A stretch of DNA of 64,000 nt from Bacteroidales bacterium (GTDB lineage Bacteria > Bacteroidota > Bacteroidia > Bacteroidales > P3). The position numbers and the translations under genes are program-made. The stretch spans positions 1,985-65,984 of the forward strand of contig JAZLLD010000055.1 in the NCBI GenBank assembly GCA_045597945.1, in the 5' to 3' direction. The notes beneath the pieces are model-generated. The model worked only from the letters and a program-made list of their open reading frames with translations, ran no database searches and was not told where the DNA came from. Of this stretch, positions 1 through 13,038 are shown in pieces (position 1 is the first letter of the stretch; the number at the start of each line of letters is the position of its first letter).

Positions 1-72
1 GGGCCTCTGCAATAAAATAATAAGGTATAATACTAAATAGAAAATCAAAACAACTAAACAAATAACACAACA

Positions 73-1296
73 ATGAAAAAAATCGCTTTAATGTTGACTC
101 TCGCAGTCATCGGTTACGCAGTAAGCGCACAGTCGTTGAACGTGTCTAGTGCTCGTGAAGCTCAGAATCGCGGTTACTACGACAAAGCCAAAAAACTCAT
201 TGACGCTGCTTGCGAACACGAGCAGACCAAGAACGATGCCAAAACCTGGTACTATGCAGGTCTTATCTACAGCCAGATTGGTGGCGAGCAGGAGAAACCC
301 AGATCCAAGTACAAAGACCTCGATCCCGAGTGGCTGACCAAATGTAAAGATGCAGCACTCCGTTGCAAAGAACTCGATACCGATAAAGAATACGCCGAAG
401 GTAACAATGCCATCCTCAACTACGTCGGTAACGGTTACTACAAAAAAGCCCTCGATTCCTTCCAGGCTCAAAACTGGGACGAATGCATGGCTCTTGGCGA
501 AGAAGCCATCAAGATCTTCAACCAGACCGGCAGCAAGGAATTCGCTTCTCAGAGCTACATCCTCGTTGGTAAAGCCGCTATGAACGCCCACAACACCGAG
601 GCTGTCAACAAATACTTCTCCACCCTCATCCGCTATCGCACCAAAGAAGAACTGGTCTACAACACCCTCTTCAGAAACTACAAAGCCGCTGGCGATACCA
701 ACGCAGCTATCGATGTTGCTCAGAAATATGCCAAGAACTGCCCCGAAGACTTCCACTCCAACATGATGCTGGCCGAAGCCTACATGCTGAAAGGCAACAT
801 GGAGCAGGGCAATGCCGAAATCCAGAAAGCTCTTGACAAGACCAAAGACCAACCCGAACTCCATGCTAACCTCTTGGCAGCTGCAGGTGCTACCTACGAG
901 AGTGTCAACGACTTCGCCAACGCAGAATCTCGCTACGTCGAGTCCCTCAACACTCTGCCCAACCAGTTCCTCGCAAACTTCGGTCTTGGCAAAATGCTCT
1001 ACAACCGCGCTGTTGACAAACTGACTGAAGCTAACAATGTTCCCCCAGACGATGAGACCGGCCTCTACGACAAATTCCTCGACGAGTCCAAAGACTTCTT
1101 CCGCCAGTCCATCCCTTACTTCACCAACGCAATTGCCTTCATCGACAACCTCAGTGCTGAAGGCCAGGGTGCACAGCGTCAGAACCTCTTCAACTGCCTC
1201 AACGCATTGAACACCGTTTACGCACGTCTTGAGATGTATGACGAACTCAAACCCATCAAGGCTCGCATCGAAGAGCTCACCAAGGCTGCTCACTAA
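73..1296 (+). CDS. secreted TPR-like helical repeat protein (hypothetical)
   Basis: 407-aa ORF with ATG at 73. N-terminal signal peptide MKKIALMLTLAVIGYAVSAQS. Helical repeat-like composition. A hairpin terminator follows. Family not recognised. Confidence 0.6.
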   Translation: MKKIALMLTLAVIGYAVSAQSLNVSSAREAQNRGYYDKAKKLIDAACEHEQTKNDAKTWYYAGLIYSQIGGEQEKPRSKYKDLDPEWLTKCKDAALRCKELDTDKEYAEGNNAILNYVGNGYYKKALDSFQAQNWDECMALGEEAIKIFNQTGSKEFASQSYILVGKAAMNAHNTEAVNKYFSTLIRYRTKEELVYNTLFRNYKAAGDTNAAIDVAQKYAKNCPEDFHSNMMLAEAYMLKGNMEQGNAEIQKALDKTKDQPELHANLLAAAGATYESVNDFANAESRYVESLNTLPNQFLANFGLGKMLYNRAVDKLTEANNVPPDDETGLYDKFLDESKDFFRQSIPYFTNAIAFIDNLSAEGQGAQRQNLFNCLNALNTVYARLEMYDELKPIKARIEELTKAAH

Positions 1297-1320
1297 TCGA
1301 CCTTTTTAAAATCTAATAAT

Positions 1321-1360
1321 AAGGCCGCCCATCATCGGGCGGCCTTATCATTTTCGTTTT
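1321..1360 (+). terminator. rho-independent terminator of the 73-1296 gene
   Basis: 10-bp GC-rich stem aaggccgccc (1321-1330) / gggcggcctt (1337-1346), 6-nt loop, T-rich tail. Confidence 0.6.
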
Positions 1361-1763
1361 AAGCCCATCAAAAGCGAATATAACAGAAACTAGACTCAAA
1401 ATATTCCATACAGAAAATACCACTACTTAACATAACGTAAATACTCGTAAACAAGAATCTGCGAAATAACAACCTCACGAGAATCGCTTAAACACTACAA
1501 GCCTGAGTCGTTGACTTGAATATCAAAAACTGGAGACAACTGAAATACTACACAAACAAGACGGCAAACCCGAGGTAATGCATGTTGAAGATAAGGAATT
1601 TTCTAGTTTGATTTAGAACTGTTTTTCAATGATTCAACAGCGGCAGCCCTAGATCATTTCACTCAAAATATTATTATGGCAATGTCGCCACCAAAAAACA
1701 CTCAAAAAATTCTCATCTAAAACTGTTAATAATGGCTCTAGTCCTTGGCGTGGTTCTAATTTT

Positions 1764-1962
1764 GGATTTTACATTTTACATTTATTGCTATCCGGCTTGT
1801 TTTCAGCATAATACGAATGAGAAAATGTAAAATTTACATTTTTGGATAACAAGACAAAATAAAGTTAAAATGTAAAATGTGTATTACATGTAAAATTTAC
1901 AAAATCAGCATGAAATCAATTGATAACTAGCTATTTGACGCAAAATGTAAAATGTAAAATCC
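1764..1962. repeat. inverted-repeat element built from TGTAAAAT words
   Basis: Perfect 20-bp inverted repeat ggattttacattttacattt (1764-1783) / aaatgtaaaatgtaaaatcc (1943-1962). Internal palindrome 1822-1842. Eight exact copies of TGTAAAAT/ATTTTACA between 1766 and 2016. Confidence 0.7.
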
Positions 1963-2059
1963 ATTTTTAAACATTACCTGACCCAATCCCACAGTTTTTA
2001 CTGAGGGCATTTTACATTTCCATGCAGTCCACAAATTCGACTTTTGCACCTCCACTTCA

Positions 2060-2134
2060 CCCTCGCTCTACCTTCGCTCTGCCTTCGCTCCTATGGACGG
2101 GTCTAGAACGGGTCTTCAACGGGCCTTCAACGGG
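2060..2134. repeat. two adjacent degenerate 11-bp tandem arrays
   Basis: First array: ccctcgctcta / ccttcgctctg / ccttcgctcct (2060-2092). Second array: tctagaacggg / tcttcaacggg / ccttcaacggg (2102-2134), preceded by atggacggg. Confidence 0.65.
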
Positions 2135-2165
2135 AGTGAAATGAAACCAAATTTTTCGGCAATCA

Positions 2166-2495
2166 CTAAATTTCCGTGTATTTCTTTGCCGATCCTTTGG
2201 CTTTATCCACTGGATATTTTTCGGCATTTCGAGCAATCTTGGCCAGACAAATGTCCTTGACATCCAGATTGTATTTCATGGCAATGTGGAACGCATAATT
2301 AAAAACATCGGCCAATTCCTCCTTCACCTTATCCAGGTCCACATCCTCGGCCGACTTCCACAAAAAAGCCTCATTCAGTTCGGCGGCCTCGATACTCAAG
2401 GCCAACGCCAAATTCTTGCCATCATGGAACTGTTCCCAATCTCGCTCATCCGTAAAACGGCGCAAAGCTGCCATAACCTCTTCAATCTCAGTCAT
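2166..2495 (-). CDS. MazG-like nucleotide pyrophosphohydrolase (all-alpha NTP-PPase)
   Basis: 109 aa. The pattern RRFTDERDWEQFH...NLALALSIEAAELNE...EELADVFNY is typical of small MazG/dCTP-pyrophosphatase-like proteins. ATG at 2495. Own TAnnTTTG box at 2553-2560. Confidence 0.75.
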   Translation of the reverse strand: MTEIEEVMAALRRFTDERDWEQFHDGKNLALALSIEAAELNEAFLWKSAEDVDLDKVKEELADVFNYAFHIAMKYNLDVKDICLAKIARNAEKYPVDKAKGSAKKYTEI

Positions 2496-2552
2496 AATAC
2501 TAAATACTAAATTTACGATTATCCTTAAATCCTGCTATTTAATTTGTTTCTG

Positions 2553-2560
2553 CAAAAATA
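2553..2560 (-). promoter_or_regulatory. Bacteroidetes -7 box (TAttTTTG) for the MazG-like gene
   Basis: Plus strand caaaaata equals minus strand tatttttg, about 58 nt upstream of the ATG at 2495. Confidence 0.4.
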
Positions 2561-2660
2561 CGAAAAGTAAATGAACTACCAAAATCAAAAAACATTTTTT
2601 AAGAAATTTTCTTCTTTATTATGAAACTGCTGAAAACAAATTTTATAGATTACCGATATA

Positions 2661-3893
2661 TTATTCCAAACCAATCGATTTCTTCTTATTCAAATGCTCC
2701 AGAACCTTTCCAAGATGATATTCAACTACTTTGTTTTCAGCATCATAAACAATATCTGTTATTTGGATTAGCGCGGTTTCTCTATCCGTTGCATATCCCA
2801 CCCCCAGGCGCAAAATATCGTATGGTCGCAAATATCGCTTGCCATCAGCCGGGTCTAAATATGTATATCTGCTAATTGTGGTTTGTTTCAATTCTCTGTA
2901 TTCCACCTTCTTCTCTCCGCTGATAATTGCATCAAAATACACCCTTTCAATCGGCAATGTTAAAACCTTGAATCCTGTCAAATCGAAAGACGACCTCTCC
3001 CCTATTACAACACGTTCCAAACACTGCAATTTGCTGTTATACATATAGTTCACTATACTCCTATCCACAATCTTCTTCACAATCAAGTTTATCACCTTCA
3101 GCGGCACCACATACCATTCCTTAGGTTCATGCTCCACACCTTTCGTGTCCTTAACTCTTACATGAAATCTAGCTTCCTCTAACACCTGATGTATCAGATT
3201 TTCAAGCGTATGCGAATTCATATTCACCACCTTATATGTAGCCACAACCTCCACACCAGCCATCAGATATGTAGGATCATTCTCAGCATTGGCAATCCTT
3301 TCCTCCACAGTATTGGTAGTAAATCCTATCTTATATAAATCTGCCTGACTAGCAATGGCCGCATCTTCCGACAGCGATTTCAGCACATATATGTACCCCG
3401 TAATCTCGTCACTTTTTGTCAATTCAGAATTCTTTGTAAGCGAATCGCTTTGCTCTTCTTCTGTCTGGGTAATAATATAGCCGTTCAGCGACACATTCTT
3501 TCTCAGTGTCGACAAATATTCATCTTGCTCTGTTCCATTCTCATAAATACACCGTGTCCTAGCATTTCGCATACCATTCGAACCTTTTGAATACTCGCCT
3601 ATTCGTTCCAAATAAACAATAGTTCCGTCAACCACATAGAAATTGCCCTCTGAGAAATTCTCCGATTTTCCCGACTTCAGCAAAATGCGCTTCCCATCCT
3701 TCAGCTCCTGCCTTACTTTGGCAAACAAAGGCTCATAATCCTCAAAGTTCTCACAACGAACTCTTTGTGCCACATGGTCAGCCTTCTTTTTTGCCGACTT
3801 AGCCTTCTGCATATCTTCCGGAACATCAAATAGGCTAGCCATAGTTTCGTCTATTTCCAATAGCGGATCGTTCAAAATGTCGTCTAGATTCAT
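2661..3893 (-). CDS. T5orf172/Mug113 (GIY-YIG superfamily) domain protein with C-terminal ASCH/PUA-like domain
   Basis: 410 aa. Central block GYIYVLKS...LYKIGFTTNTVEERIANAE...EWYVVPL matches the T5orf172 signature. The C-terminal VYFDAIISGEKKVEYRELK...YDILRLGVGY resembles ASCH/DUF3850-type PUA-like folds. ATG lies 2 nt after the upstream stop. Confidence 0.7.
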   Translation of the reverse strand: MNLDDILNDPLLEIDETMASLFDVPEDMQKAKSAKKKADHVAQRVRCENFEDYEPLFAKVRQELKDGKRILLKSGKSENFSEGNFYVVDGTIVYLERIGEYSKGSNGMRNARTRCIYENGTEQDEYLSTLRKNVSLNGYIITQTEEEQSDSLTKNSELTKSDEITGYIYVLKSLSEDAAIASQADLYKIGFTTNTVEERIANAENDPTYLMAGVEVVATYKVVNMNSHTLENLIHQVLEEARFHVRVKDTKGVEHEPKEWYVVPLKVINLIVKKIVDRSIVNYMYNSKLQCLERVVIGERSSFDLTGFKVLTLPIERVYFDAIISGEKKVEYRELKQTTISRYTYLDPADGKRYLRPYDILRLGVGYATDRETALIQITDIVYDAENKVVEYHLGKVLEHLNKKKSIGLE

Positions 3894-3895
3894 AT

Positions 3896-4150
3896 CTACA
3901 AAATATTACTCGTGTCGTAAGGTTCCAACAATTCTTTTTCTTTGCGCAAAGCCGCCAATGCTCTGCACAGCATCTTCTCAGCCAAGTCGCCGTTGGCTTG
4001 TGGCTCTCTTCCATGCGCTGCAATCCAGTCTGCCACCTCCTGCAACTTCTGCACCTTGCGGTCGTCAGCCGTCATCGGTTGCGGCTTCAACTTCACATCC
4101 GCCAGCAGCGGATCGTCAAATATTTCCAACAATTCTTTCGGCCAATCCAT
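3896..4150 (-). CDS. small hypothetical protein (84 aa) of the MTase-helicase operon
   Basis: Its ATG (4148-4150) overlaps the helicase stop (4150-4152) as TAATG. It shares an N-terminal (I/L)x(D/N)DPLL motif with the next protein. Family not recognised. Confidence 0.5.
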   Translation of the reverse strand: MDWPKELLEIFDDPLLADVKLKPQPMTADDRKVQKLQEVADWIAAHGREPQANGDLAEKMLCRALAALRKEKELLEPYDTSNIL

Positions 4151-6168
4151 TACAATTCATCATTATAGTCCAACCCCTTCAATCTTCTCAACTTCAAGTT
4201 TACAAGTTTCTGGAAGGCTGCCGCCAACTCCCTCACCTTGGGGTCGGGGTCGTCAGCCGATGGCTTTTGGCCATCATGCTCTTCCAAATATTTCTTATAA
4301 GGTCCTTGAAACAACATCACGGCCTGCTCCATCGTCATATCTATCTTCATCTCTGCCAAGGTGTCCTGAATCACTCTCAGCACCTCGGCATCCACATTCT
4401 TCGACACAATCTCGTATGCCCGCTGGAATGGATTGATAGACTCTATCAAGTTGATATGCAGCTTGCTCAAGTCAATCATTCGGTTCGTCAGTTTCAGGAA
4501 TCTGTTGCCTTCGCTTTCCGTGTCCTCGCCATTACCAAATTTGCTCACATCAATGGCATTGCCGTCCTTATCCACCACCTCATTGCTCTTGAACAGAATA
4601 TTCAGCATTGTCCTATGCGACACGGCTTCCACATCATCATCCGTCAGCTCAGGGTATGTCTCCCTCACAATCTTAGGAATCAACACCTTAGTTATCGTCT
4701 CTGCGGTAGTGTTCCCACTGATGGCCTTCTGTATATGCACATCCTGCAATATTGTAGCCGTCAGGTCATCCAGTTGCTCATCCACAATTTGCTTAGCCTT
4801 CACGCTTCCCAGCGGCTTCAATCCTTCAACCACTACCGTCCTTACCACGTCCATACCTTCCAGCACCTTAATACCTTCTAGCTTAGTATGGAAATGCCAC
4901 TGTGGTGCCATCACTTGCTCCATAAGCAGCGACGCTGTGATAGCTTTCAAAAAGTCGTTCACCGCCACCTTCACATCCGGCTGTTCGGCATCAGGCATGG
5001 CAATCATATTCACAAACCTTGCTGTGCTCTTGCCTTCGCAGTCGCGTGTGCACCTTCCGATAATCTGCACAATCTCTGTCAGCGAACCCCTCACGCCTAT
5101 GGTCAGACACATCTCACACCATGCCCAGTCGAAACCCTCTTTGGCAGTTCCTAGGGCAATAATGATGTCCATGTCCTCAGCCCGGGTCATGTTTTGCAGA
5201 TAGCCATACACATGATTCCTCACCTCTGGCGCATCTTCCACCAAGTCAGCCACTTTCAGCACCCTGCCGTCAGGTGTTCGCATCTCGTAAATACCATTAT
5301 CCCTCCTCACCTCCGTACCTATATAGGCCATAATGTCGGCCACCTCTTGATATTTCGACCCCGTGCTGGCTCGGCTATTCACACTCGGAATATGGATGAT
5401 AGTCTTCTTCGTAGTGTCAAGCACCTCGCCTATATGGTCCAAATACGAACCCGAATAGAAATGATAGCCCAAAACCAAGTTTTTCAAATATTTATAGCCG
5501 TTCAACTGCTGATAGTAGTTGTATGTCACCGGGGTAAATCTGGCCTCGTCCTCTGCCCGCAGCACAGGCACACCGTCGCCTCGGAAATACGAACCAGTCA
5601 TGGCCACGATATGCGCCGTCGAATTGTTCATCACCCTTCTCACAATCTCGCCCAATCCGCTTTCAGCATCGGCACTCGTGTGGTGGAACTCATCTATGGC
5701 CAATAAACAGTTGTCAAACCGATTATCGTCTATCATCTTCATACCGTTGCGCAGCGTGGCATGAGCGCATATCAAAATCCTCTCTTGGCAATCATCGCGC
5801 ATAAACTCGCAGAATCGGCCGGCCTTGTCGGTCTCATTCTCTACATCGCATAGATTAAAGTATGGCTTCACTTTCCAATCGTCAAAGAAGCCAAAATCTG
5901 TTAGTTGCGTATCTTTAAACGAGCGACCAATACTCTTTTCCGGCACAGCCACCACCACCTTTTTCAGCCCCTGATTTCTCAGCTTGTCCAAAGCTATAAA
6001 CATCAGTGCGCGACTCTTGCCGCTGGCGGGGGGCGCTTTGATTAGCAGAAAACGTTCGTTGCGCTGGGCGTAGGCCTTGGCCTGCATCTCGCGCATACCC
6101 AGTTCGTTGGTCAAACTGCTGCTCCCTTTTTGCGAATAGTTCACTTGTATAGTCAGATTATCTTTCAT
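4150..6168 (-). CDS. SF2 (DEAD/DEAH, Res-like) helicase/ATPase
   Basis: 672 aa. Walker A APPASGKS, motif II DEFHH, motif III MTGS, motif VI QIIGRCTRD. The about 230-aa C-terminal region is unassigned. No nuclease motif seen by eye. Confidence 0.85.
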   Translation of the reverse strand: MKDNLTIQVNYSQKGSSSLTNELGMREMQAKAYAQRNERFLLIKAPPASGKSRALMFIALDKLRNQGLKKVVVAVPEKSIGRSFKDTQLTDFGFFDDWKVKPYFNLCDVENETDKAGRFCEFMRDDCQERILICAHATLRNGMKMIDDNRFDNCLLAIDEFHHTSADAESGLGEIVRRVMNNSTAHIVAMTGSYFRGDGVPVLRAEDEARFTPVTYNYYQQLNGYKYLKNLVLGYHFYSGSYLDHIGEVLDTTKKTIIHIPSVNSRASTGSKYQEVADIMAYIGTEVRRDNGIYEMRTPDGRVLKVADLVEDAPEVRNHVYGYLQNMTRAEDMDIIIALGTAKEGFDWAWCEMCLTIGVRGSLTEIVQIIGRCTRDCEGKSTARFVNMIAMPDAEQPDVKVAVNDFLKAITASLLMEQVMAPQWHFHTKLEGIKVLEGMDVVRTVVVEGLKPLGSVKAKQIVDEQLDDLTATILQDVHIQKAISGNTTAETITKVLIPKIVRETYPELTDDDVEAVSHRTMLNILFKSNEVVDKDGNAIDVSKFGNGEDTESEGNRFLKLTNRMIDLSKLHINLIESINPFQRAYEIVSKNVDAEVLRVIQDTLAEMKIDMTMEQAVMLFQGPYKKYLEEHDGQKPSADDPDPKVRELAAAFQKLVNLKLRRLKGLDYNDEL

Positions 6169-6172
6169 AATA

Positions 6173-8926
6173 TCATTTCTTAGCTTTGGTCATTTTTTCA
6201 TATAGTTTGAAGAGGCACTCCAGTCTGGCCTCATCGTTGGCAAACGGATAGCCCGGATAGCAGCTCTCCACCACATCGTCCAACTTCTGGTGAGCCTCAC
6301 GCAATGGCTCGGGCATCTTGTCGGGGTCGTAAAGATCGGCAAGAGTTGCGCCAGGATAGTCCTCGCGTGTCAGCAACACCTCCTCAGCTGCCGCTTCAAT
6401 CTCTTTCTTCTTCGTTTCGGTCAGTTTGGGAAATGGGAAGGAGTTGTAACAGAGGCTAGTATATCGATAATCAGTCTTCAACTTTCCTCCAATTGTCTTC
6501 ATCCATACCATACTCATTAATGATGTACACACTCCGAACACCCAGATAGGACAAGATTGAATCATATACATGGCATTTGTAACAACCATCTGAGTATTAG
6601 CGTATCCCATTGGGATATACAATCTATTTTCAGATGAAGTAGACGGAATCACAAGCGTACAGTCATCACAAGAAATGAATTCTCTAAATTGATAAGGTTT
6701 CACCGCAAGGGCATTAGCTCCCTCATCAGAACTAGACAATCTCATTTTTTTTGTTTTTTCAACTCTTTCATAAATAAACGAATATTTTAATGCATCTTTT
6801 TCATCTTCATCTGAGATCCACAAACAATATCTTATATTTCCTTTTATATAATCCGCCGCACTATATAATTCTTTAATATACTTATCATTGCCTATCTCAT
6901 TTATAAGTTCGTCTTTTTCGCTCAATGACAATATTAAATTACCACCATCATAAGGCATACACCCTCTTATGATAATAGGCAAACTTGATATAGGTTTTGT
7001 TTGTTTAAACACTACAAGTTGCGCACCGTCTGTTAAATATGGCGATATTGAATTTGCATATCTTTTTTCATTACCCACAAACAAAACCTTTTGTTTATTG
7101 ACGCAAGAAAGCCCAACAATTACACATATAACAGCAGCATTTTTTCTTGCATTATTTCTCCATTTAAATGAAGTATATGCAAAATCAATATTTACACCAG
7201 ATTTATATATTGCCGTCCATAATGGTTCAACCATCTCCCCTTGACAAATTGAATTAGTACTCACAAAAGCACATTTTGATTTAGTCTTTTTGATATATTC
7301 AGCACCTTTAATAAACCAAACACCAATATAATCTATTTTTTTGTATCCTTTATATTTACCAATGGACACTTTCATGTCGTTTTTTTGTTCTGATGTTTGT
7401 AAGCTAACACCCAAATACGGCGGATTGCCAAACACAAACACTTCTTCATCTTTGGTATGGGGGCAGACTTCGTTCCAATCCATACGACACGCATTGCCAA
7501 GTCTGATTTGGGTGATGTTTTGCAGAGGCAGCGCATGGGTGTTGATGCCAAAGTCTTTCATCAACTTCCTATTCATCTGATGCTGTGCCAACCATAGCGA
7601 CAGCATGGTCATCTCATGCGGAAAGTCCTGCAACTCTATGCCATAGAACTGCTGCAATGTAATGACCGATGAATCCATCTGCGTCAGCAAACCATATTGG
7701 ATAGTGCATTCTTGCATCAGCTTCAAGATTTCCATCTCCAGCAATCTCAACCGCTTGTAGGTGATAATCAAGAAATTGCCACTGCCACATGCGGGGTCGA
7801 AGAATTTCATCTTGCTCATACGCTTCAGCAGTTTTTGGCAACTCTGCATCACGGGCTTACATTCTTGCTCATACTGATTGCCGCTACTGATGCCCAAATC
7901 TCTGCGCTCTTTGATGCCGCTATGTACATCTTTTATCTTTTTAAATTCTTCTTGCAACTCATCCATAAACAGCGGATTAATCACCTTCAGGATGTTAGGC
8001 ACACTGGTATAGTGCATTCCCTGGTTGGCTCTCACTTCGGGGTTGACTACGGCCTGTATCATGCTGCCAAAGATATCGGGGTTGATTTCTTTCCAGTCCA
8101 GGCTGCCGCAGTCCACCATAATCTTGCGAGCCCGGCGGCTAAGTTTCGGAATCTGAATAGGATGGCTGAACAGTCCGCCATTGACATAGGGGAAATGCTT
8201 TACCACAGCTTTGGTTTCTTTGGTGCGACTCTTCTCCGGGATGTCCATAATGGCAAAAGCCTCAGACAGATAATCACTCAGGTCGCTACCATCTTCCAGC
8301 GTATAGCTCTTGATACTGTTGGTGAAAAGGTTGTCGGGGAAGATGCCGGTATCTTCGGCAAAGTAGCAGAACAAAAGCCTGGAGATGAATATATTGAGGT
8401 CGTGGAGGTCGGTGTCGCTCGTAAACTCATTGAAGGCACGTATCTCATCGTGCAGCTTGGCAAGCTTTTCGGCTGCCTTCACATCGGCGGGACTTTCCTC
8501 CACATTATGCACCCGCTCCACATCGGCCAAGGGATAAAAGAAATTGAAATCGTAGCATAGGCCAGCCAGTCGATTCTCGTAGGTGTCGTTCTCGCGCAGG
8601 TCGTAGGCTAGCATGGTCTCGCCGTCGCTCACCATGGCTATCTTTGGTTTGGCGGCCAGCACCCTGGTGTCGGCTTTCATCTGCTCCAGTTCGGCAGTCA
8701 TATCCTTGGCCGTTGAGGTGCGGTAGGCGATTAAGTTTTTGATTAGCAGACCGTCGTAGCTTTTCACCACTCCTTTGCCCTCTCGCCAGCGGCGGATGTC
8801 GGCATCGGTCTTGCCAAAACTATAGAGCAGCCGAAATGGAACATCGTCGGCTGCCACAGTATTGTCTTTGAAACATTTGAGTCTTTGTTCTATCTCCTGA
8901 TAGCCAAGCTGTGTTTTCTTTGCCAT
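6173..8926 (-). CDS. MmeI-family (Type IIL/ISP-like) gamma-class N6-adenine DNA methyltransferase with TRD
   Basis: 917 aa. Motif I FFDPACGSGNFL, motif IV FGNPPYLG, upstream GMHYTS motif. C-terminal LADLYDPDKMPEPLREAHQKLD...EARLECLFKLYEKM tail is typical of MmeI-like enzymes. AT-rich central TRD. Confidence 0.85.
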   Translation of the reverse strand: MAKKTQLGYQEIEQRLKCFKDNTVAADDVPFRLLYSFGKTDADIRRWREGKGVVKSYDGLLIKNLIAYRTSTAKDMTAELEQMKADTRVLAAKPKIAMVSDGETMLAYDLRENDTYENRLAGLCYDFNFFYPLADVERVHNVEESPADVKAAEKLAKLHDEIRAFNEFTSDTDLHDLNIFISRLLFCYFAEDTGIFPDNLFTNSIKSYTLEDGSDLSDYLSEAFAIMDIPEKSRTKETKAVVKHFPYVNGGLFSHPIQIPKLSRRARKIMVDCGSLDWKEINPDIFGSMIQAVVNPEVRANQGMHYTSVPNILKVINPLFMDELQEEFKKIKDVHSGIKERRDLGISSGNQYEQECKPVMQSCQKLLKRMSKMKFFDPACGSGNFLIITYKRLRLLEMEILKLMQECTIQYGLLTQMDSSVITLQQFYGIELQDFPHEMTMLSLWLAQHQMNRKLMKDFGINTHALPLQNITQIRLGNACRMDWNEVCPHTKDEEVFVFGNPPYLGVSLQTSEQKNDMKVSIGKYKGYKKIDYIGVWFIKGAEYIKKTKSKCAFVSTNSICQGEMVEPLWTAIYKSGVNIDFAYTSFKWRNNARKNAAVICVIVGLSCVNKQKVLFVGNEKRYANSISPYLTDGAQLVVFKQTKPISSLPIIIRGCMPYDGGNLILSLSEKDELINEIGNDKYIKELYSAADYIKGNIRYCLWISDEDEKDALKYSFIYERVEKTKKMRLSSSDEGANALAVKPYQFREFISCDDCTLVIPSTSSENRLYIPMGYANTQMVVTNAMYMIQSCPIWVFGVCTSLMSMVWMKTIGGKLKTDYRYTSLCYNSFPFPKLTETKKKEIEAAAEEVLLTREDYPGATLADLYDPDKMPEPLREAHQKLDDVVESCYPGYPFANDEARLECLFKLYEKMTKAKK

Positions 8927-9023
8927 ACTTTCAGATATTTTCCAGCATCGGGTGTGGAACTATCTGATCAAATTATGTATGGCTTTCGCATCAGGGCAAC
9001 AAAAAAGGGTGCAAGCCCTCTTA

Positions 9024-9232
9024 CGGTCGTCTGAGGCGTAAGCGTAGGAATTCTCTGGCCTCTCCTTCAATAAGATTGATGCTTGACCCTATAAGGGTGC
9101 AAGTCATCGTTCTATCAACATTGAAGGATTGCTGGCTTTGATTATTCCACGCTATATGTGGTAAAGCCAACCATCATTGATGTGGTAAATATCAGAGAGA
9201 TTAAGTTTCCTACGCTTACTTTCGTGACGACC
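9024..9232. ncRNA. candidate structured RNA / long-range inverted-repeat element in the MTase operon leader
   Basis: Interrupted 26-bp closing stem: 9025-9031/9226-9232, 9038-9050/9207-9219 (13 bp perfect), 9052-9057/9193-9198. It encloses about 135 nt with at least three internal helices. Strand and class undetermined. Confidence 0.35.
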
Positions 9233-9341
9233 ACAATGATAGTCTGATGCTGCTATATGTTTATTTTTAAACTATTTGTACTTTACTTCTTCTTGTTTGT
9301 ATTCAATAATTAATAATGTTATTATATATATATTCCAATTG

Positions 9342-9349
9342 CAAAGATA
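9342..9349 (-). promoter_or_regulatory. -7 box (TAtcTTTG) of the MTase-helicase-T5orf172 operon
   Basis: Plus strand caaagata within ttgcaaagatacgaa, the same context as promoters of many genes in this window. About 415 nt upstream of the ATG at 8926. Confidence 0.45.
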
Positions 9350-9372
9350 CGAATTTTTTTCGTATTAGCGAA

Positions 9373-9380
9373 TATCTTTG
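9373..9380 (+). promoter_or_regulatory. divergent plus-strand -7 box (TAtcTTTG) with no downstream ORF
   Basis: tatctttg lies on the plus strand, 24 nt from the minus-strand box. The two flank the palindrome atacgaa-ttttt-ttcgtat. Confidence 0.35.
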
Positions 9381-10044
9381 TTGATTTTGTTGCAAATAAT
9401 TCTTTCTGCAAATTGTTTCAGCGGGAGTCCACCCCTACCCTTCTTGGCGGATGATGGGAATATAAAATGTAGAATGGCTGCCACTCCGGTTTTATGATCG
9501 ATTGGAGTATTTTTTTTATTCTTCAGCCACTAAACTACCAAGCAGTTATGCTCATTACCTATAAACGTGTTGGTACGCTGTAACTCCGTTGTAGCTCCGT
9601 TGATTCTACGGGGTGAAGAAGGCTGTCACAGGCAGCCTTCGATAGCGTAGCGGAGAAATCAACCACTCTGGGGAGCGGATCCTCAGGGGGTGGACAAAGA
9701 ATGTATGATACCCCTAAAATATAGAATCTAGAATGGATTTTTGCAACACTATGCACATTTGTGTGTAATCAATGTGTTATGCGATTCTATATTCTAGATT
9801 TATGGTCATATTGATGTGGCGGACAGCTATTGATAGTGCGAATACTAGTTTGTTACCATTTGAATAACAGGTATTAAATAGCCAATCTGTCACGAACATT
9901 CAATACCAGAGGTTTTGACGCAGATATAGAATCTTGGTTCTATATCTAGAATGCAAATCCGACACAATGAGTGATTCTGCCACTAAACAACTAAGCAAAC
10001 TCGTTGGCGGGTCGCACATTTGTCGCCGATATGCGGATAATCGC

Positions 10045-10082
10045 AAAAAAGGAAGCCCCGAAATCTCAGGGCTTCCTTTTTG
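10045..10082 (-). terminator. glyA terminator (bidirectional hairpin)
   Basis: Stem ggaagccc (10051-10058) / gggcttcc (10069-10076), flanked by an A-run and a T-run, 35 nt downstream of the glyA stop. Confidence 0.7.
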
Positions 10083-10116
10083 GATATGTTTTGGAGTCTG
10101 TTGACCCCAGAATCTA

Positions 10117-11394
10117 CTACCAAGCGAAGAGAGGACGGTTCTGCATCATCTCGTTGACGGTAGCGCGTACCTTTGCGATGGTGTCCTCGGTGGGGTTGCA
10201 GAGCACGGTGTCGATCAGGTTGACAACCTCGGGCATCTCGTTCTCTTTCAGGCCACGGGTGGTGATAGCGGGGGTACCAACGCGGAGACCGGAGGTCTTG
10301 AAGGCGCTGCGGCTGTCGAAGGGAACCATGTTCTTGTTGATGGTGATGTCGGCAGCAACGAGAGCATTCTCAGCTTCCTTACCGGTCATCTCGGGGAACT
10401 TGGTGCGGAGGTCAACCAGCATGAGGTGGTTGTCGGTACCGTTGGAGATAACTTTGTAGCCCTTCTCCATGAAGCACTCGCACATGACCTTGGCGTTCTT
10501 CATAACCTGCTGGATGTACTGGTCGTAGCTGTCGGTAAGAGCCTCGCCGAAAGCAACAGCCTTAGCAGCGATGACGTGCTCGAGGGGACCGCCCTGGGTG
10601 CCGGGGAACACTGCGCTGTCGAGGAGAGCAGACATCTTCTTGATTTCGCCCTTAGGAGTGGTCTTGCCCCAAGGATTGTCGAAATCCTGACCCATGAGGA
10701 TCATACCGCCACGAGGTCCGCGGAGGGTCTTGTGGGTGGTGGTGGTGACGATGTGGCAGTATTTAACTGCGTTGTTCAGATAGCCCTTAGCGATGAGGCC
10801 GGAGGGGTGGCTGATGTCGCCCATGAGGATAGCGCCGATCTTGTCAGCGATCTCACGCATCTTAGCCCAATCCCAGTCGCGGCTGTAAGCGGAACCGCCA
10901 CCGATGATCAGCTTGGGGTGATGCTCGAGAGCTTTCTTCTCCATGTCTTCGTAGTCGACCATACCGGTCTCTTCCTTCACCTGATAACCAACAACTTTGT
11001 AGTTGAGGCCGGAGAAGTTGACGGGGGAACCGTGGCTGAGGTGACCGCCGTGGTTGAGGTCCATGCCCATGAAGGTGTCGCCAGCGTTGAGGCAAGCCAG
11101 GAAGACTGCCATGTTAGCCTGTGCACCGCTGTGGGGCTGAACGTTTGCCCAGCAAGCGCCATAGAGCTGCTTAGCGCGCTCGATAGCGATGGTTTCGCTC
11201 TGGTCAACGATCTGGCAGCCGCCATAGTAACGCTTTCCGGAGTAGCCCTCGGCATATTTGTTGGTCATTACGGAACCCATAGCTTCCATGACCTGTTCAC
11301 TTACAAAGTTCTCAGAGGCAATGAGCTCGATGCCCTTGGTCTGACGTTCTCTTTCTTTCTGAATGAGATCGAAAATTTGAGTATCTCTTTGCAT
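10117..11394 (-). CDS. glyA: serine hydroxymethyltransferase
   Basis: 425 aa. [20 protein letters not shown] and [14 protein letters not shown] motifs. Confidence 0.97.
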
Positions 11395-11435
11395 ATCAAA
11401 TATATGTATTAAATTAGTATTATTTTTCTTTTGTG

Positions 11436-11443
11436 CAAATATA
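11436..11443 (-). promoter_or_regulatory. -7 box (TAtaTTTG) of glyA
   Basis: Plus strand caaatata within gtgcaaatatacgaaaaa, about 42 nt upstream of the ATG. Confidence 0.45.
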
Positions 11444-11521
11444 CGAAAAATATTTGGAACAATAGAATTTAATTAATATTTAAGAATTAATAATGCAAAA
11501 TTATAGGTGGTTTGGGGAGGA

Positions 11522-11575
11522 AAGTTGGAGGAGTTGATGGAATTGATGGAGTTAATGAAGTTGATGGAGTGAGGG
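11522..11575. repeat. 9-bp tandem repeat (about 5-6 units)
   Basis: Units gagttgatg / gaattgatg / gagttaatg / aagttgatg / gagtgaggg (11531-11575), preceded by aagttggag. Confidence 0.6.
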
Positions 11576-11809
11576 TGTTGGGATAGTTGTTTTTTGAGGG
11601 CGGTAGCTTGGGTGGATTGATGCAGAAATCTGCATTTTTTTTGAATTTAAAATGATTTTTTGCAAGTTATTTTTTCAGTTGTCTGCATTTTTTTTTACTT
11701 TTTTTTCTGATATCACAATCTATTTGTATTCAATTAAGTATGCATTGCTTCATGTGCTCTGCGAGGGCGGATGTTGAGAGTGGTGCAGTAAATATGCACA
11801 TGTAGGTTT

Positions 11810-11936
11810 TATCTTTGCAATCAGAAAAAAGATAGGAACATCCTACATATAGATTTTTCTTACTAGAGGCTATACAAGGTGCGTGTTTGAAAAAAATAGC
11901 CTAAACATCTCCGAGTTCTTCGGAGATGTTTTTTTA
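11810..11936 (+). ncRNA. candidate small RNA (promoter box plus intrinsic terminator, no ORF)
   Basis: TAtcTTTG box at 11810-11817. Terminator aacatctccga-gttc-ttcggagatgtt plus T-run at 11904-11936. Internal hairpin ggctat...atagcc. No ATG-initiated ORF in between. Confidence 0.4.
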
Positions 11937-11982
11937 TGTCGCACAACTTTGAAAGCATAGTTTGAGACCAAGTGATGATTTA

Positions 11983-13038
11983 TCAGCCGAGGCCATTGAG
12001 TTTCATTGCATTGACAATATGTGCTTTATGGCGTTCGATCAGGGTGTCGGGGCTGAGCACACGGCAGCAATCGCAGTAGTACAGGAGAGAGCCCTCAAGT
12101 TCCTGGTTGACTTTGACATTTAGTTTCACGTCAAGCACTCTCTCGCCATCCACTTCAATCCATTTGGCTTTCTGCGAACCATGCAGCGGACAGTTTTCAA
12201 CATATGGCGCAGCCCAACCAACAAATTGCAGATGAATATCTTCCGGAGGGTTGGGAGTGTTAATGACACCGATGAAATCCTCAAAATAAGACTCCGGGTC
12301 GAAATTGGCATTGATATAAGGGTCGGTGCAGGGCTTGATGGCCTGGATGCGGTCCATGGCAATGGTCTGGATTTCATTAGGTTTCTCGGTCGTGACACCG
12401 AAAGCATACCAGAAGCCGCGGAACTGCTTGAAATAGCACGGATGGAAGTGATATGTGCAATGTCCGCGCTTGAAACAGCCATATTCAATGGTCAGCGGCT
12501 GGTGGTCTTGGATGGCTGTGAAAATCTGCTCGAAATGCTTGTAGACCTCCATGGCACGGGGACCGCCTAAGTCGGGGTTGACATCCAGCTGGATGCGAGG
12601 CACATTGCTTTTGTGTTTGGAAATGGCGCTCATGCCGTTGAACGACTCCTGAATCCACGCAATCTGGGGCAGCCCCATGATAACGTCGAGACATTCCATG
12701 GCCGAGGTAATGCAGACCACCTGCTTGGTTGTCAGCGGCATGTGGTCGATACTGAAACTGGGGTCGTGGTAGCGGTAGGCCGTGTAGGGGCGGTTGTGGC
12801 CGTGCTCATCGGGGCGGATGATGCGGAAAGTGTCGATCTCGGCATCCAAACCATCTGGCGACCGCATATAGGCAATGTCCACATAGAGCTGGCGCTCGCC
12901 CACGGGCTTTGGATTGGCAGTCTCGCTAAGGCCGCGGTTAACCTCTTCCAAGAGGTCGGCAAGGGTATAATCACGCGAGATGTCGCGGAAACATTTGTCG
13001 AGCAAACGATAGCGCTGGATAGCTTTATTAGAGACCAT
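11983..13038 (-). CDS. WYL-domain transcriptional regulator (HTH-WYL)
   Basis: 351 aa. N-terminal HTH-like KAIQRYRLLDKCF...LADLLEEV. WYL-type motif FRGFWYAFG. Confidence 0.65.
   Translation of the reverse strand: MVSNKAIQRYRLLDKCFRDISRDYTLADLLEEVNRGLSETANPKPVGERQLYVDIAYMRSPDGLDAEIDTFRIIRPDEHGHNRPYTAYRYHDPSFSIDHMPLTTKQVVCITSAMECLDVIMGLPQIAWIQESFNGMSAISKHKSNVPRIQLDVNPDLGGPRAMEVYKHFEQIFTAIQDHQPLTIEYGCFKRGHCTYHFHPCYFKQFRGFWYAFGVTTEKPNEIQTIAMDRIQAIKPCTDPYINANFDPESYFEDFIGVINTPNPPEDIHLQFVGWAAPYVENCPLHGSQKAKWIEVDGERVLDVKLNVKVNQELEGSLLYYCDCCRVLSPDTLIERHKAHIVNAMKLNGLG

Follow-up and report, generated by a model that had tools for sequence, protein, structure and literature searches.

Which kind of restriction system is encoded by four adjacent genes on the minus strand of a Bacteroidales contig, and which of their products would cut DNA? 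The genes span positions 2661-8926 of a 64,000-nucleotide (nt) stretch of contig JAZLLD010000055.1 (GenBank assembly GCA_045597945.1), referred to here as the window. A first reading of the letters alone (the original prediction) had described a methyltransferase (MTase), a superfamily 2 (SF2) helicase, an 84-amino-acid (aa) protein and a T5orf172-ASCH protein, which together were said to fit no named system type. We found instead a gut-Bacteroidales locus that, judged by homology, almost certainly belongs to the YeeA(DnmA)/YeeB/YeeC-type class, since the YeeABC class has been described and the genes are homologous to published YeeB and YeeC. The genes and their predicted domains are located in the window as follows.

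6173..8926, minus strand: gene 1, YeeA/DnmA-like MmeI-family gamma-class N6-adenine MTase with a fused target-recognition domain (TRD), 917 aa (Pfam, PADLOC, MmeI 5HR4)
8417..8926, minus strand: degenerate nuclease-like N-terminal domain of gene 1, aa 1-170 (hhalign against the MmeI N-terminus)
6422..7027, minus strand: TRD of gene 1, aa 634-835 (Pfam MmeI_TRD)
4150..6168, minus strand: gene 2, YeeB-like SF2 ATPase/translocase, 672 aa, with a conserved helical C-terminal region (ResIII/DEAD, YeeB homology)
3896..4150, minus strand: gene 3, 84-aa open reading frame (ORF), a detached YeeC N-terminal domain (in-frame fusions elsewhere, YeeC homology)
2661..3893, minus strand: gene 4, the remaining YeeC-like protein, 410 aa, with a conserved middle domain, T5orf172 and an ASCH/PUA-like tail
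3069-3398, minus strand: T5orf172/GIY-YIG-type nuclease core of gene 4, aa 166-275 (Pfam and conserved residues)
2694-2969, minus strand: clade-specific ASCH/PUA-like tail of gene 4, about aa 309-400 (Pfam, PHROG, fold)

All four ORFs are intact at these positions. The junctions, in the order of transcription, read TGA-TATT-ATG (4 nt), TAATG (1-nt overlap) and TAG-AT-ATG (2 nt), which bears out the four same-strand ORFs with spacers of 4, -1 and 2 nt reported at first, and the peptide motifs quoted with them were all found in the proteins.

The class was defined by Morgan et al. (2009) as a second set of MmeI homologues, without PD-ExK and with first ~100 residues unlike those of MmeI, which 'invariably' have a YeeB-like DEAD helicase and a YeeC-like GIY-YIG protein at their flanks (PMC2731913). 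The purified members YeeA and MslORFHP had no endonuclease activity, and a split, Type I-like system was proposed, in which the MmeI-like subunit provides specificity and modification while its altered N-domain engages the helicase and the nuclease (PMC2731913). The split mechanism put forward in the original prediction had thus already been proposed in that paper. In B. subtilis, YeeA (DnmA) makes N6-methyladenine (m6A) at GACGAG (Nye et al. 2020; Fernandez et al. 2023), and Piel et al. (2021) showed that yeeAB mediates resistance of V. crassostreae 7F1_18 to one phage group and that inactivation restores sensitivity. The class and its logic have been in print since 2009, and a phage phenotype was published in 2021, so the statement that the locus fits no named type overstates its novelty. 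Our literature search returned no later mechanistic paper or system name for the class. Membership of gene 1 is judged from the class definition together with the homology of its two partner genes: it is MmeI-like over most of its length, its first ~100 residues are divergent and lack the catalytic D70, E80 and K82 of MmeI, and next to it lie a YeeB-homologous helicase and a YeeC-homologous GIY-YIG/T5orf172 protein.

All five MmeI domains in Pfam (N, helical spacer, MTase, TRD and C) were matched by gene 1. MmeI_Mtase, MmeI_TRD and MmeI_C were detected at E = 1e-99 to 5e-24 (MmeI_TRD, E = 4e-64), and MmeI_N (E = 2e-14) and MmeI_hel (E = 9e-23), which the original prediction had not seen, were also matched, indicating a complete MmeI architecture and not an MTase-TRD module alone. 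The PADLOC profile REase_MTase_IIG (PDLC03598) matched gene 1 over its full length with 963 bits. A phmmer search against the sequence of the MmeI crystal structure 5HR4 gave E = 8e-175 with residues 93-914 aligned, and the MmeI alignment still began at residue 93 when the N-terminal 175 residues were searched alone. When a 60-sequence family alignment was compared with the MmeI N-terminus by hhalign, a probability of 99.2% was obtained, and the catalytic positions of MmeI fell on a gap (D70), on R69 (E80) and on S71 (K82) of gene 1. No conserved ExK was seen in the first 92 residues across the 60 family members. The alignments thus identify the N-domain as a predicted homologue of the MmeI nuclease domain that has lost D70/E80/K82, and the earlier picture of a split system without any nuclease domain in gene 1 has to be changed: an MmeI_N homologue is present, and it is the D-ExK residues that are gone. 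Given that these residues are missing, cleavage must come from other subunits, and the N-domain probably gives the helicase and nuclease subunits a place to dock.

The TRD of gene 1 appears to have a different history from the rest of the protein. We compared gene 1 with its counterpart in L001, the closest related locus (L-numbers denote related loci, L087-L140 being IMG/VR contigs), and found 88% identity in the N-domain and 86% in the C-domain versus 36% in the TRD. The TRD is 62-63% identical to those of L006 and L019, whose remaining domains are no closer. In addition, the GC content is 0.33 over 6501-7500, which coincides with the TRD, versus ~0.49 in the helicase gene. This mosaic suggests cassette exchange between related systems, and a TRD swap between close relatives is as expected of a specificity determinant under diversifying pressure.

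Gene 2 was matched by ResIII (E = 9e-8) and DEAD (E = 3e-7) in Pfam. Its helicase motifs I, II, III and VI (G50-K51-S52, D159-E160-x-H162-H163, M190-T191 and Q368..G371-R372..R375-D376) are invariant in an alignment of 19 homologous sequences. Using the YeeB and YeeC reference sequences of B. subtilis and V. crassostreae given in Fig. S5 of PMC9973331, we found that the window helicase is 50% identical to B. subtilis YeeB (621 aa aligned) and, from end to end, 46.5% identical to its V. crassostreae counterpart (686 aa). The window helicase and the Vibrio YeeB both carry a C-terminal tail that is missing from the inactive, 599-aa YeeB of B. subtilis. In the AlphaFold2 model of gene 2 (predicted local distance difference test score 73), parts of the C-terminal region are of low confidence. 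A fold search with this model returned generic SF2 cores (MrfA, Brr2, PolQ, RadD, LlaBIII, HamB and HsdR), so the helicase subfamily cannot be assigned by fold, and among Protein Data Bank (PDB) sequences the matches were marginal (LlaBIII, E = 0.044). In neither the helicase nor gene 4 did Pfam detect an Mrr or PD-ExK domain, and a look-up of the exact window helicase sequence gave no record.

We then turned to the two downstream genes, which together correspond to YeeC. The 84-aa ORF is 36% identical over 59 aa to residues 34-92 of B. subtilis YeeC; it did not match V. crassostreae YeeC, and a weak match to the C-terminal tail of Vibrio YeeB was found. No family was assigned to it in Pfam, PADLOC, NCBIfam or PHROG, and NCBIfam likewise held no family for the helicase or gene 4. 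In 41 related loci, the homologous sequence runs in frame with the T5orf172 protein without a stop, giving proteins of ~385-405 aa, and it is a separate ORF in 24 loci, namely L001-L023, which are Bacteroidales with a helicase identity of at least 56%, and L045. Taken together, these comparisons identify the 84-aa ORF as a predicted YeeC N-terminal domain that was split off in one Bacteroidales clade. The 84-aa gene of the original prediction is thus not an additional component, as the in-frame fusions and the YeeC homology both indicate.

Gene 4 matched T5orf172 (E = 1.4e-15) and MUG113 (E = 3e-14) in Pfam. It is 38% identical over 281 aa to residues 99-367 of B. subtilis YeeC (E = 1e-53) and 34% identical over 253 aa to V. 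crassostreae YeeC. The GIY-YIG-type residues (GxIY 166-169, YKIG 187-190, R199, H235 and E259) are kept in at least 90% of 70 homologues. A fold search with the whole of gene 4 returned no GIY-YIG structures, so the GIY-YIG-type call rests on Pfam and the conserved residues; among PDB sequences there was no meaningful match to gene 4. With these domain calls and the residue loss in gene 1, the original proposal that the T5orf172 protein is the only plausible nuclease, in a system whose activities are split over separate proteins, held up.

The C-terminal domain of gene 4 is probably ASCH, as profile and fold comparisons suggest. When the tail was scanned alone, its Pfam score was 20.8 bits, just under the cut-off of 21.2, while PHROG 625 matched at E = 1e-11. 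A Foldseek search gave 3iuw (probability 1.00, template modelling score 0.68) and 5gus (probability 0.98), with E values of only ~1e-2 for a whole-protein query. Among the loci compared, the tail was detectable only in the Bacteroidales clade with the split YeeC and in L025, a Rikenellaceae locus that encodes a 494-aa YeeC-like protein, still fused, with an ASCH tail. On this limited sampling, the gain of ASCH appears to have preceded the fission of YeeC. The ASCH module, which had been counted as part of the gene set, is thus not a core part of it. Both the split YeeC and the ASCH fusion appear to be undescribed.

Two short motifs run through these proteins. An acidic motif, (L/I)(D/E)(D/E)I(F/L)xDDxxGLL, occurs in two copies in fused YeeC proteins; a strict regular expression found at least two copies in 23 of 70 proteins, a count that is a lower bound, and the duplication was clear in the proteins that it matched. 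The fission lies just before the second copy, so that each of the two window polypeptides begins with one copy, of the form (L/I)(D/E)(D/E)I(F/L)xDPLL (ELLEIFDDPLL and NLDDILNDPLL), and the motif may serve assembly. Moreover, residues 39-70 of the 84-aa protein (nt 3941-4036) resemble residues 624-657 of the helicase C-terminal tail (nt 4198-4299), with an hhalign probability of 93.5%. The YeeC N-domain and the YeeB tail thus share a ~32-aa module, x-GREP-x-D-x-E-x-L-x-L-x-R/K, and the inactive B. subtilis YeeB ends just before it.

How widely is this gene set distributed, and do its members travel together? The helicase family comprises 324 clusters at 50% identity (E <= 1e-30), and relatives are encoded at no fewer than 585 places in species-representative genomes. 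We kept 80 loci, which come from Bacteroidota, Pseudomonadota, Campylobacterota, Bacillota, Planctomycetota, Chlamydiota, Chloroflexota, Spirochaetota, Lentisphaeria and a lineage of the candidate phyla radiation. Helicase homologues were also found on 265 plasmids, 120 of them conjugative, and metagenomes hold thousands of near-identical copies, apparently mostly from gut and rumen. An MmeI-like gene lies upstream in all 44 helicase-anchored genome loci with enough upstream flank, a T5orf172 core lies downstream in all 68 with enough downstream flank, and the full trio in the order MTase-helicase-nuclease is present wherever both flanks are available (40/40), as it is on the Bacillus plasmid pBTBD59S1. 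The synteny of MTase, helicase and T5orf172, which the original prediction had named as a check, was therefore confirmed. Another 54 contigs classed as viral in IMG/VR (L087-L140) carry a helicase homologue; flanks permitting, the MTase accompanies it in 30 of 30 and T5orf172 in 47 of 51. The closer relatives sit in unrelated chromosomal contexts. Relative to L001, the helicase has a dN/dS (the ratio of non-synonymous to synonymous substitution rates) of 0.05, the 84-aa ORF one of 0.08 and the MTase gene one of 0.25; such values could be obtained for few locus pairs only, and for none in the case of gene 4, because dS was saturated. By this estimate, the helicase, the 84-aa ORF and the MTase gene are under strong purifying selection. 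Overall, the MTase, helicase and GIY-YIG-type motifs are intact, and the MTase, helicase and T5orf172 genes are invariably linked across phyla.

Insertions are frequent at the junction between the MTase and helicase genes: of 59 related loci, 35 hold 0.56-5.4 kb of same-strand cargo there, for example at about 4600-10000 of L044 and at 9155-10000 of L002, while the window has no insert and only the 4-nt spacer. The cargo includes a PIN/DUF6364 toxin-antitoxin pair, RhuM (6 loci), YhcG/DUF1016, an AAA_21+DUF4435 OLD-like ATPase, an SF1 (superfamily 1) helicase, a complete Hachiman HamA-HamB with a Schlafen-AlbA_2 protein, and a free ASCH protein (L006). Nested defence cargo is known from Type I restriction-modification (RM) operons.

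We consider it reasonably likely that the locus is a YeeABC-type, three-activity, Type I-like RM defence system built on an MmeI-family MTase, with an inferred mechanism whose steps have about even chances of being right. The TRD of gene 1 would read a short asymmetric site, and one adenine on one strand of host DNA would be methylated, as is done by MmeI and DnmA. At unmethylated sites, gene 1 would not cut; its degenerate N-domain would recruit or license the YeeB-like SF2 ATPase, which would translocate along DNA at the expense of ATP, and the YeeC-like GIY-YIG nuclease would then cut the DNA. The 84-aa domain and the acidic motifs would serve assembly. In the clade of the window, YeeC is made as two translationally coupled polypeptides, and the nuclease has gained a C-terminal domain, probably ASCH (PUA-like).

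Several points weigh against this proposal. The MmeI residues 1-106 used for hhalign are ones that we take to be correct; they fit the published D70/E80/K82 numbering and join exactly to the matched residues 107 onward. D101 and D109-x-(K/R), which lie on later strands, are conserved in the gene-1 family and might be read as an unconventional nuclease active site in the N-domain; such a site is unlikely as judged by alignment, because MmeI has D at the D101 and D109 positions too. The docking roles proposed for the N-domain, acidic motif and 84-aa protein are only inferred. Our literature search found no member of the class for which cleavage, translocation or complex formation had been demonstrated biochemically. 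Further, B. subtilis DnmA-YeeB-YeeC does not restrict plasmids or three phages, and the DnmA site is not avoided in phage genomes (Nye et al. 2020; Fernandez et al. 2023), while the Vibrio result, in the accessible part of Piel et al. (2021), concerns yeeA and yeeB, not yeeC.

The B. subtilis data raise the question of whether the locus is a relic, in which gene 1 acts as an orphan epigenetic MTase and the helicase and nuclease no longer restrict. Deletion of dnmA, yeeB or yeeC in B. subtilis leaves phage infection and transformation unaffected, and DnmA methylation alters promoter activity (Nye et al. 2020; Fernandez et al. 2023). However, the four window ORFs are intact and translationally coupled with invariant catalytic motifs, the helicase and the 84-aa ORF look constrained (dN/dS of 0.05 to 0.08), the trio remains linked in every genome locus with both flanks across phyla, and the window helicase retains the C-terminal tail that is absent in B. 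subtilis YeeB. Moreover, Vibrio yeeAB does protect against phage (Piel et al. 2021). We therefore regard a relic as unlikely.

The ASCH tail brings up another possibility, namely a hybrid in which the tail reads host m6A or a phage hypermodification and either vetoes self-cleavage or adds Type IV-like targeting. An ASCH/PUA-like fold is fused to the nuclease here, the PUA-like domains SRA, EVE and YTH are modified-base readers in Type IV enzymes, many positions of the tail do not vary among 23 homologues, and L006 encodes its separate ASCH-domain protein between the MTase and helicase genes. Nevertheless, ASCH is not needed for core function, characterised ASCH proteins act on RNA or nucleosides, and we know of no ligand for this ASCH subfamily, so that this role of the tail seems improbable. 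A further step, distinctly doubtful on the same evidence, would be that the nuclease was rebuilt in this clade with a free 84-aa adaptor and an ASCH base-reader, so that it is steered by unmethylated sites and by modified bases, with altered assembly or regulation, given that the adaptor has its ~32-aa module in common with the helicase tail; if true, this would unite Type I-like and Type IV-like restriction in one machine.

Finally, gene 1 can hardly be a self-contained Type IIG/IIL enzyme with the downstream genes as mere neighbours: the full-length REase_MTase_IIG match and the presence of MmeI_N would favour this, but the equivalents of D70/E80/K82 are absent in the window protein and its family, phmmer leaves the first 92 residues unaligned to MmeI, two purified members of the subgroup had no endonuclease activity (PMC2731913), and the helicase and T5orf172 genes are linked to it in every genome locus with enough flank.

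Upstream of gene 1, two non-coding features were recorded in the window.

8927..9287, minus strand: 5' leader, 87% identical over 363 nt to the stretch upstream of the MTase gene in L001
9349-9342, minus strand: TAnnTTTG (TATCTTTG), a Bacteroidetes-type -7 box, candidate promoter only

The conservation of the leader relative to L001 is about equal to that of coding sequence, and the leader accompanies the cassette in this closest relative. Among the related loci compared, it was matched in none besides L001, and since it is conserved only there, a role as a family-wide regulatory element is not shown. A short GC-rich hairpin followed by a T run lies in the leader near 9005-9020. An Rfam scan of 1-12000 (E <= 0.1) gave no match, that is, no known RNA in the long leader or the flanks. 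The original prediction had also claimed one TAnnTTTG box at 9342-9349 and no internal promoter-like gaps. The box is there and the statement on gaps is correct, but three further TAnnTTTG boxes lie inside the coding sequence of the operon (8822, 8075 and 5996). With 56 matches in the window on both strands, one box in the 1.2-kb gap upstream of the operon is at about chance level, and it stands 55 nt outside the leader conserved with L001.

That 1.2-kb gap is non-coding and separates the operon from a serine hydroxymethyltransferase (SHMT) gene (10117-11394, minus strand). Within it, 9459-9953 contains about six copies of a ATATAGAATCTAGAAT-like motif in both orientations, a stretch that is absent from the otherwise syntenic L001, and it includes imperfect inverted arms of 26 nt at 9719-9744 and 9920-9945 with no Rfam match. 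We considered an invertible promoter (inverted repeats, 9714-9945) and dropped it, because the repeat-flanked segment has no TAnnTTTG on either strand. The neighbours of the operon encode the SHMT, a WYL protein, a MazG-like protein and a tetratricopeptide-repeat protein. The WYL-domain protein (351 aa; 11983-13038, minus strand) is encoded two genes upstream of the operon, and proteins with this domain are frequently regulators of defence loci. The gene immediately downstream of the operon encodes the MazG-like nucleotide pyrophosphohydrolase (109 aa; 2166-2495, minus strand; Pfam E = 5e-14) and has its own TATTTTTG box at 2560-2553. No related locus was found to have this gene beside the cassette, so it probably does not belong to the system as a fifth component. 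Further downstream, the non-coding region 1759-2020 holds about eight AAATGTAAAATGTAAAAT copies in both orientations, among which 1763-1783 and 1943-1963 form a perfect 21-nt inverted repeat.

What would the YeeABC-type, Type I-like reading mean if it is right? Systems of this type are very common. The locus would fill a known gap and overturn no current view. With profile-based tools, the methylase will probably be wrongly labelled as a self-contained Type IIG enzyme. Because the window copy is intact and its helicase is full-length, like that of the Vibrio system with a genetic phenotype, it is a reasonable Bacteroidales candidate for study. Where YeeC is naturally split, a domain boundary and a likely module for assembly can be read off, and the ASCH fusion is a possible link between methylation-protected and modification-sensing restriction.

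The placement can be set against other known systems, and on the features tested, the original exclusion of Type I, II, III and ISP RM, BREX and DISARM holds. PADLOC also returned PbeA and PDC-S57, which we rejected as system assignments because the matches were weak. Like gene 1, BREX PglX and DISARM DrmMI are MmeI-related MTases that lack a working nuclease and act with helper proteins, and gene 1 gave partial PADLOC matches to DrmMI (E = 7e-25, residues 498-909) and PglX (E = 4e-4). Its NCBIfam PglX scores of 11.6-16.7 bits compare with cut-offs of 400 to 900; no PglZ, BrxC or BrxL genes of BREX and no DrmA, DrmB or DrmC (DUF1998, PLD) genes of DISARM were found.

With MmeI and the Type IIL/IIG enzymes (5HR4), gene 1 shares the order of N-domain, helical spacer, gamma-class m6A MTase, TRD and C-domain and, probably, the modification of a single strand at an asymmetric site. 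It differs in lacking D70/E80/K82, in that its first ~92 residues are not alignable by sequence, and in the absence of the PD-ExK that Type IIL/IIG enzymes carry in the N-terminal domain of the same polypeptide. The Type ISP enzymes LlaGI and LlaBIII (4XQK) likewise combine a nuclease, an SF2 translocase, a MmeI-like gamma MTase and a TRD at an asymmetric site, and LlaBIII is matched by the window helicase in structure as well as, weakly, in sequence. However, Type ISP is one polypeptide with an Mrr/PD-ExK nuclease, whereas the window encodes three or four polypeptides, with a stop codon at each junction, and a GIY-YIG-type nuclease.

Type I RM (e.g., EcoR124I) resembles the proposed system in that a methylase-specificity module directs a separate SF2 motor and nuclease, in the cargo nested inside the operon and in the swapping of specificity domains. 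The differences are that the window has no HsdS, the TRD being fused to the MTase, that its motor and nuclease are separate proteins, that the nuclease is GIY-YIG-type and not PD-ExK, and that modification is probably hemi-methylation. No Methylase_S or HsdR-type matches were obtained in the window proteins, and PADLOC MTase_I matched only at E = 2e-4 over 90 residues. In its proposed workings, the locus is like a Type I or Type ISP enzyme dismantled into its parts.

The closest likeness is to the YeeABC loci of B. subtilis and V. crassostreae, where a PD-ExK-less MmeI-family MTase-TRD is followed by the helicase and then by a T5orf172/GIY-YIG protein, in the same gene order and with overlapping or near-abutting genes. 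The window locus differs from both in that its YeeC is split into 84 aa and 410 aa and in the ~100-aa C-terminal ASCH domain, which their YeeC proteins do not have. Its helicase tail is full, as in the Vibrio YeeB and unlike the 599-aa YeeB of B. subtilis.

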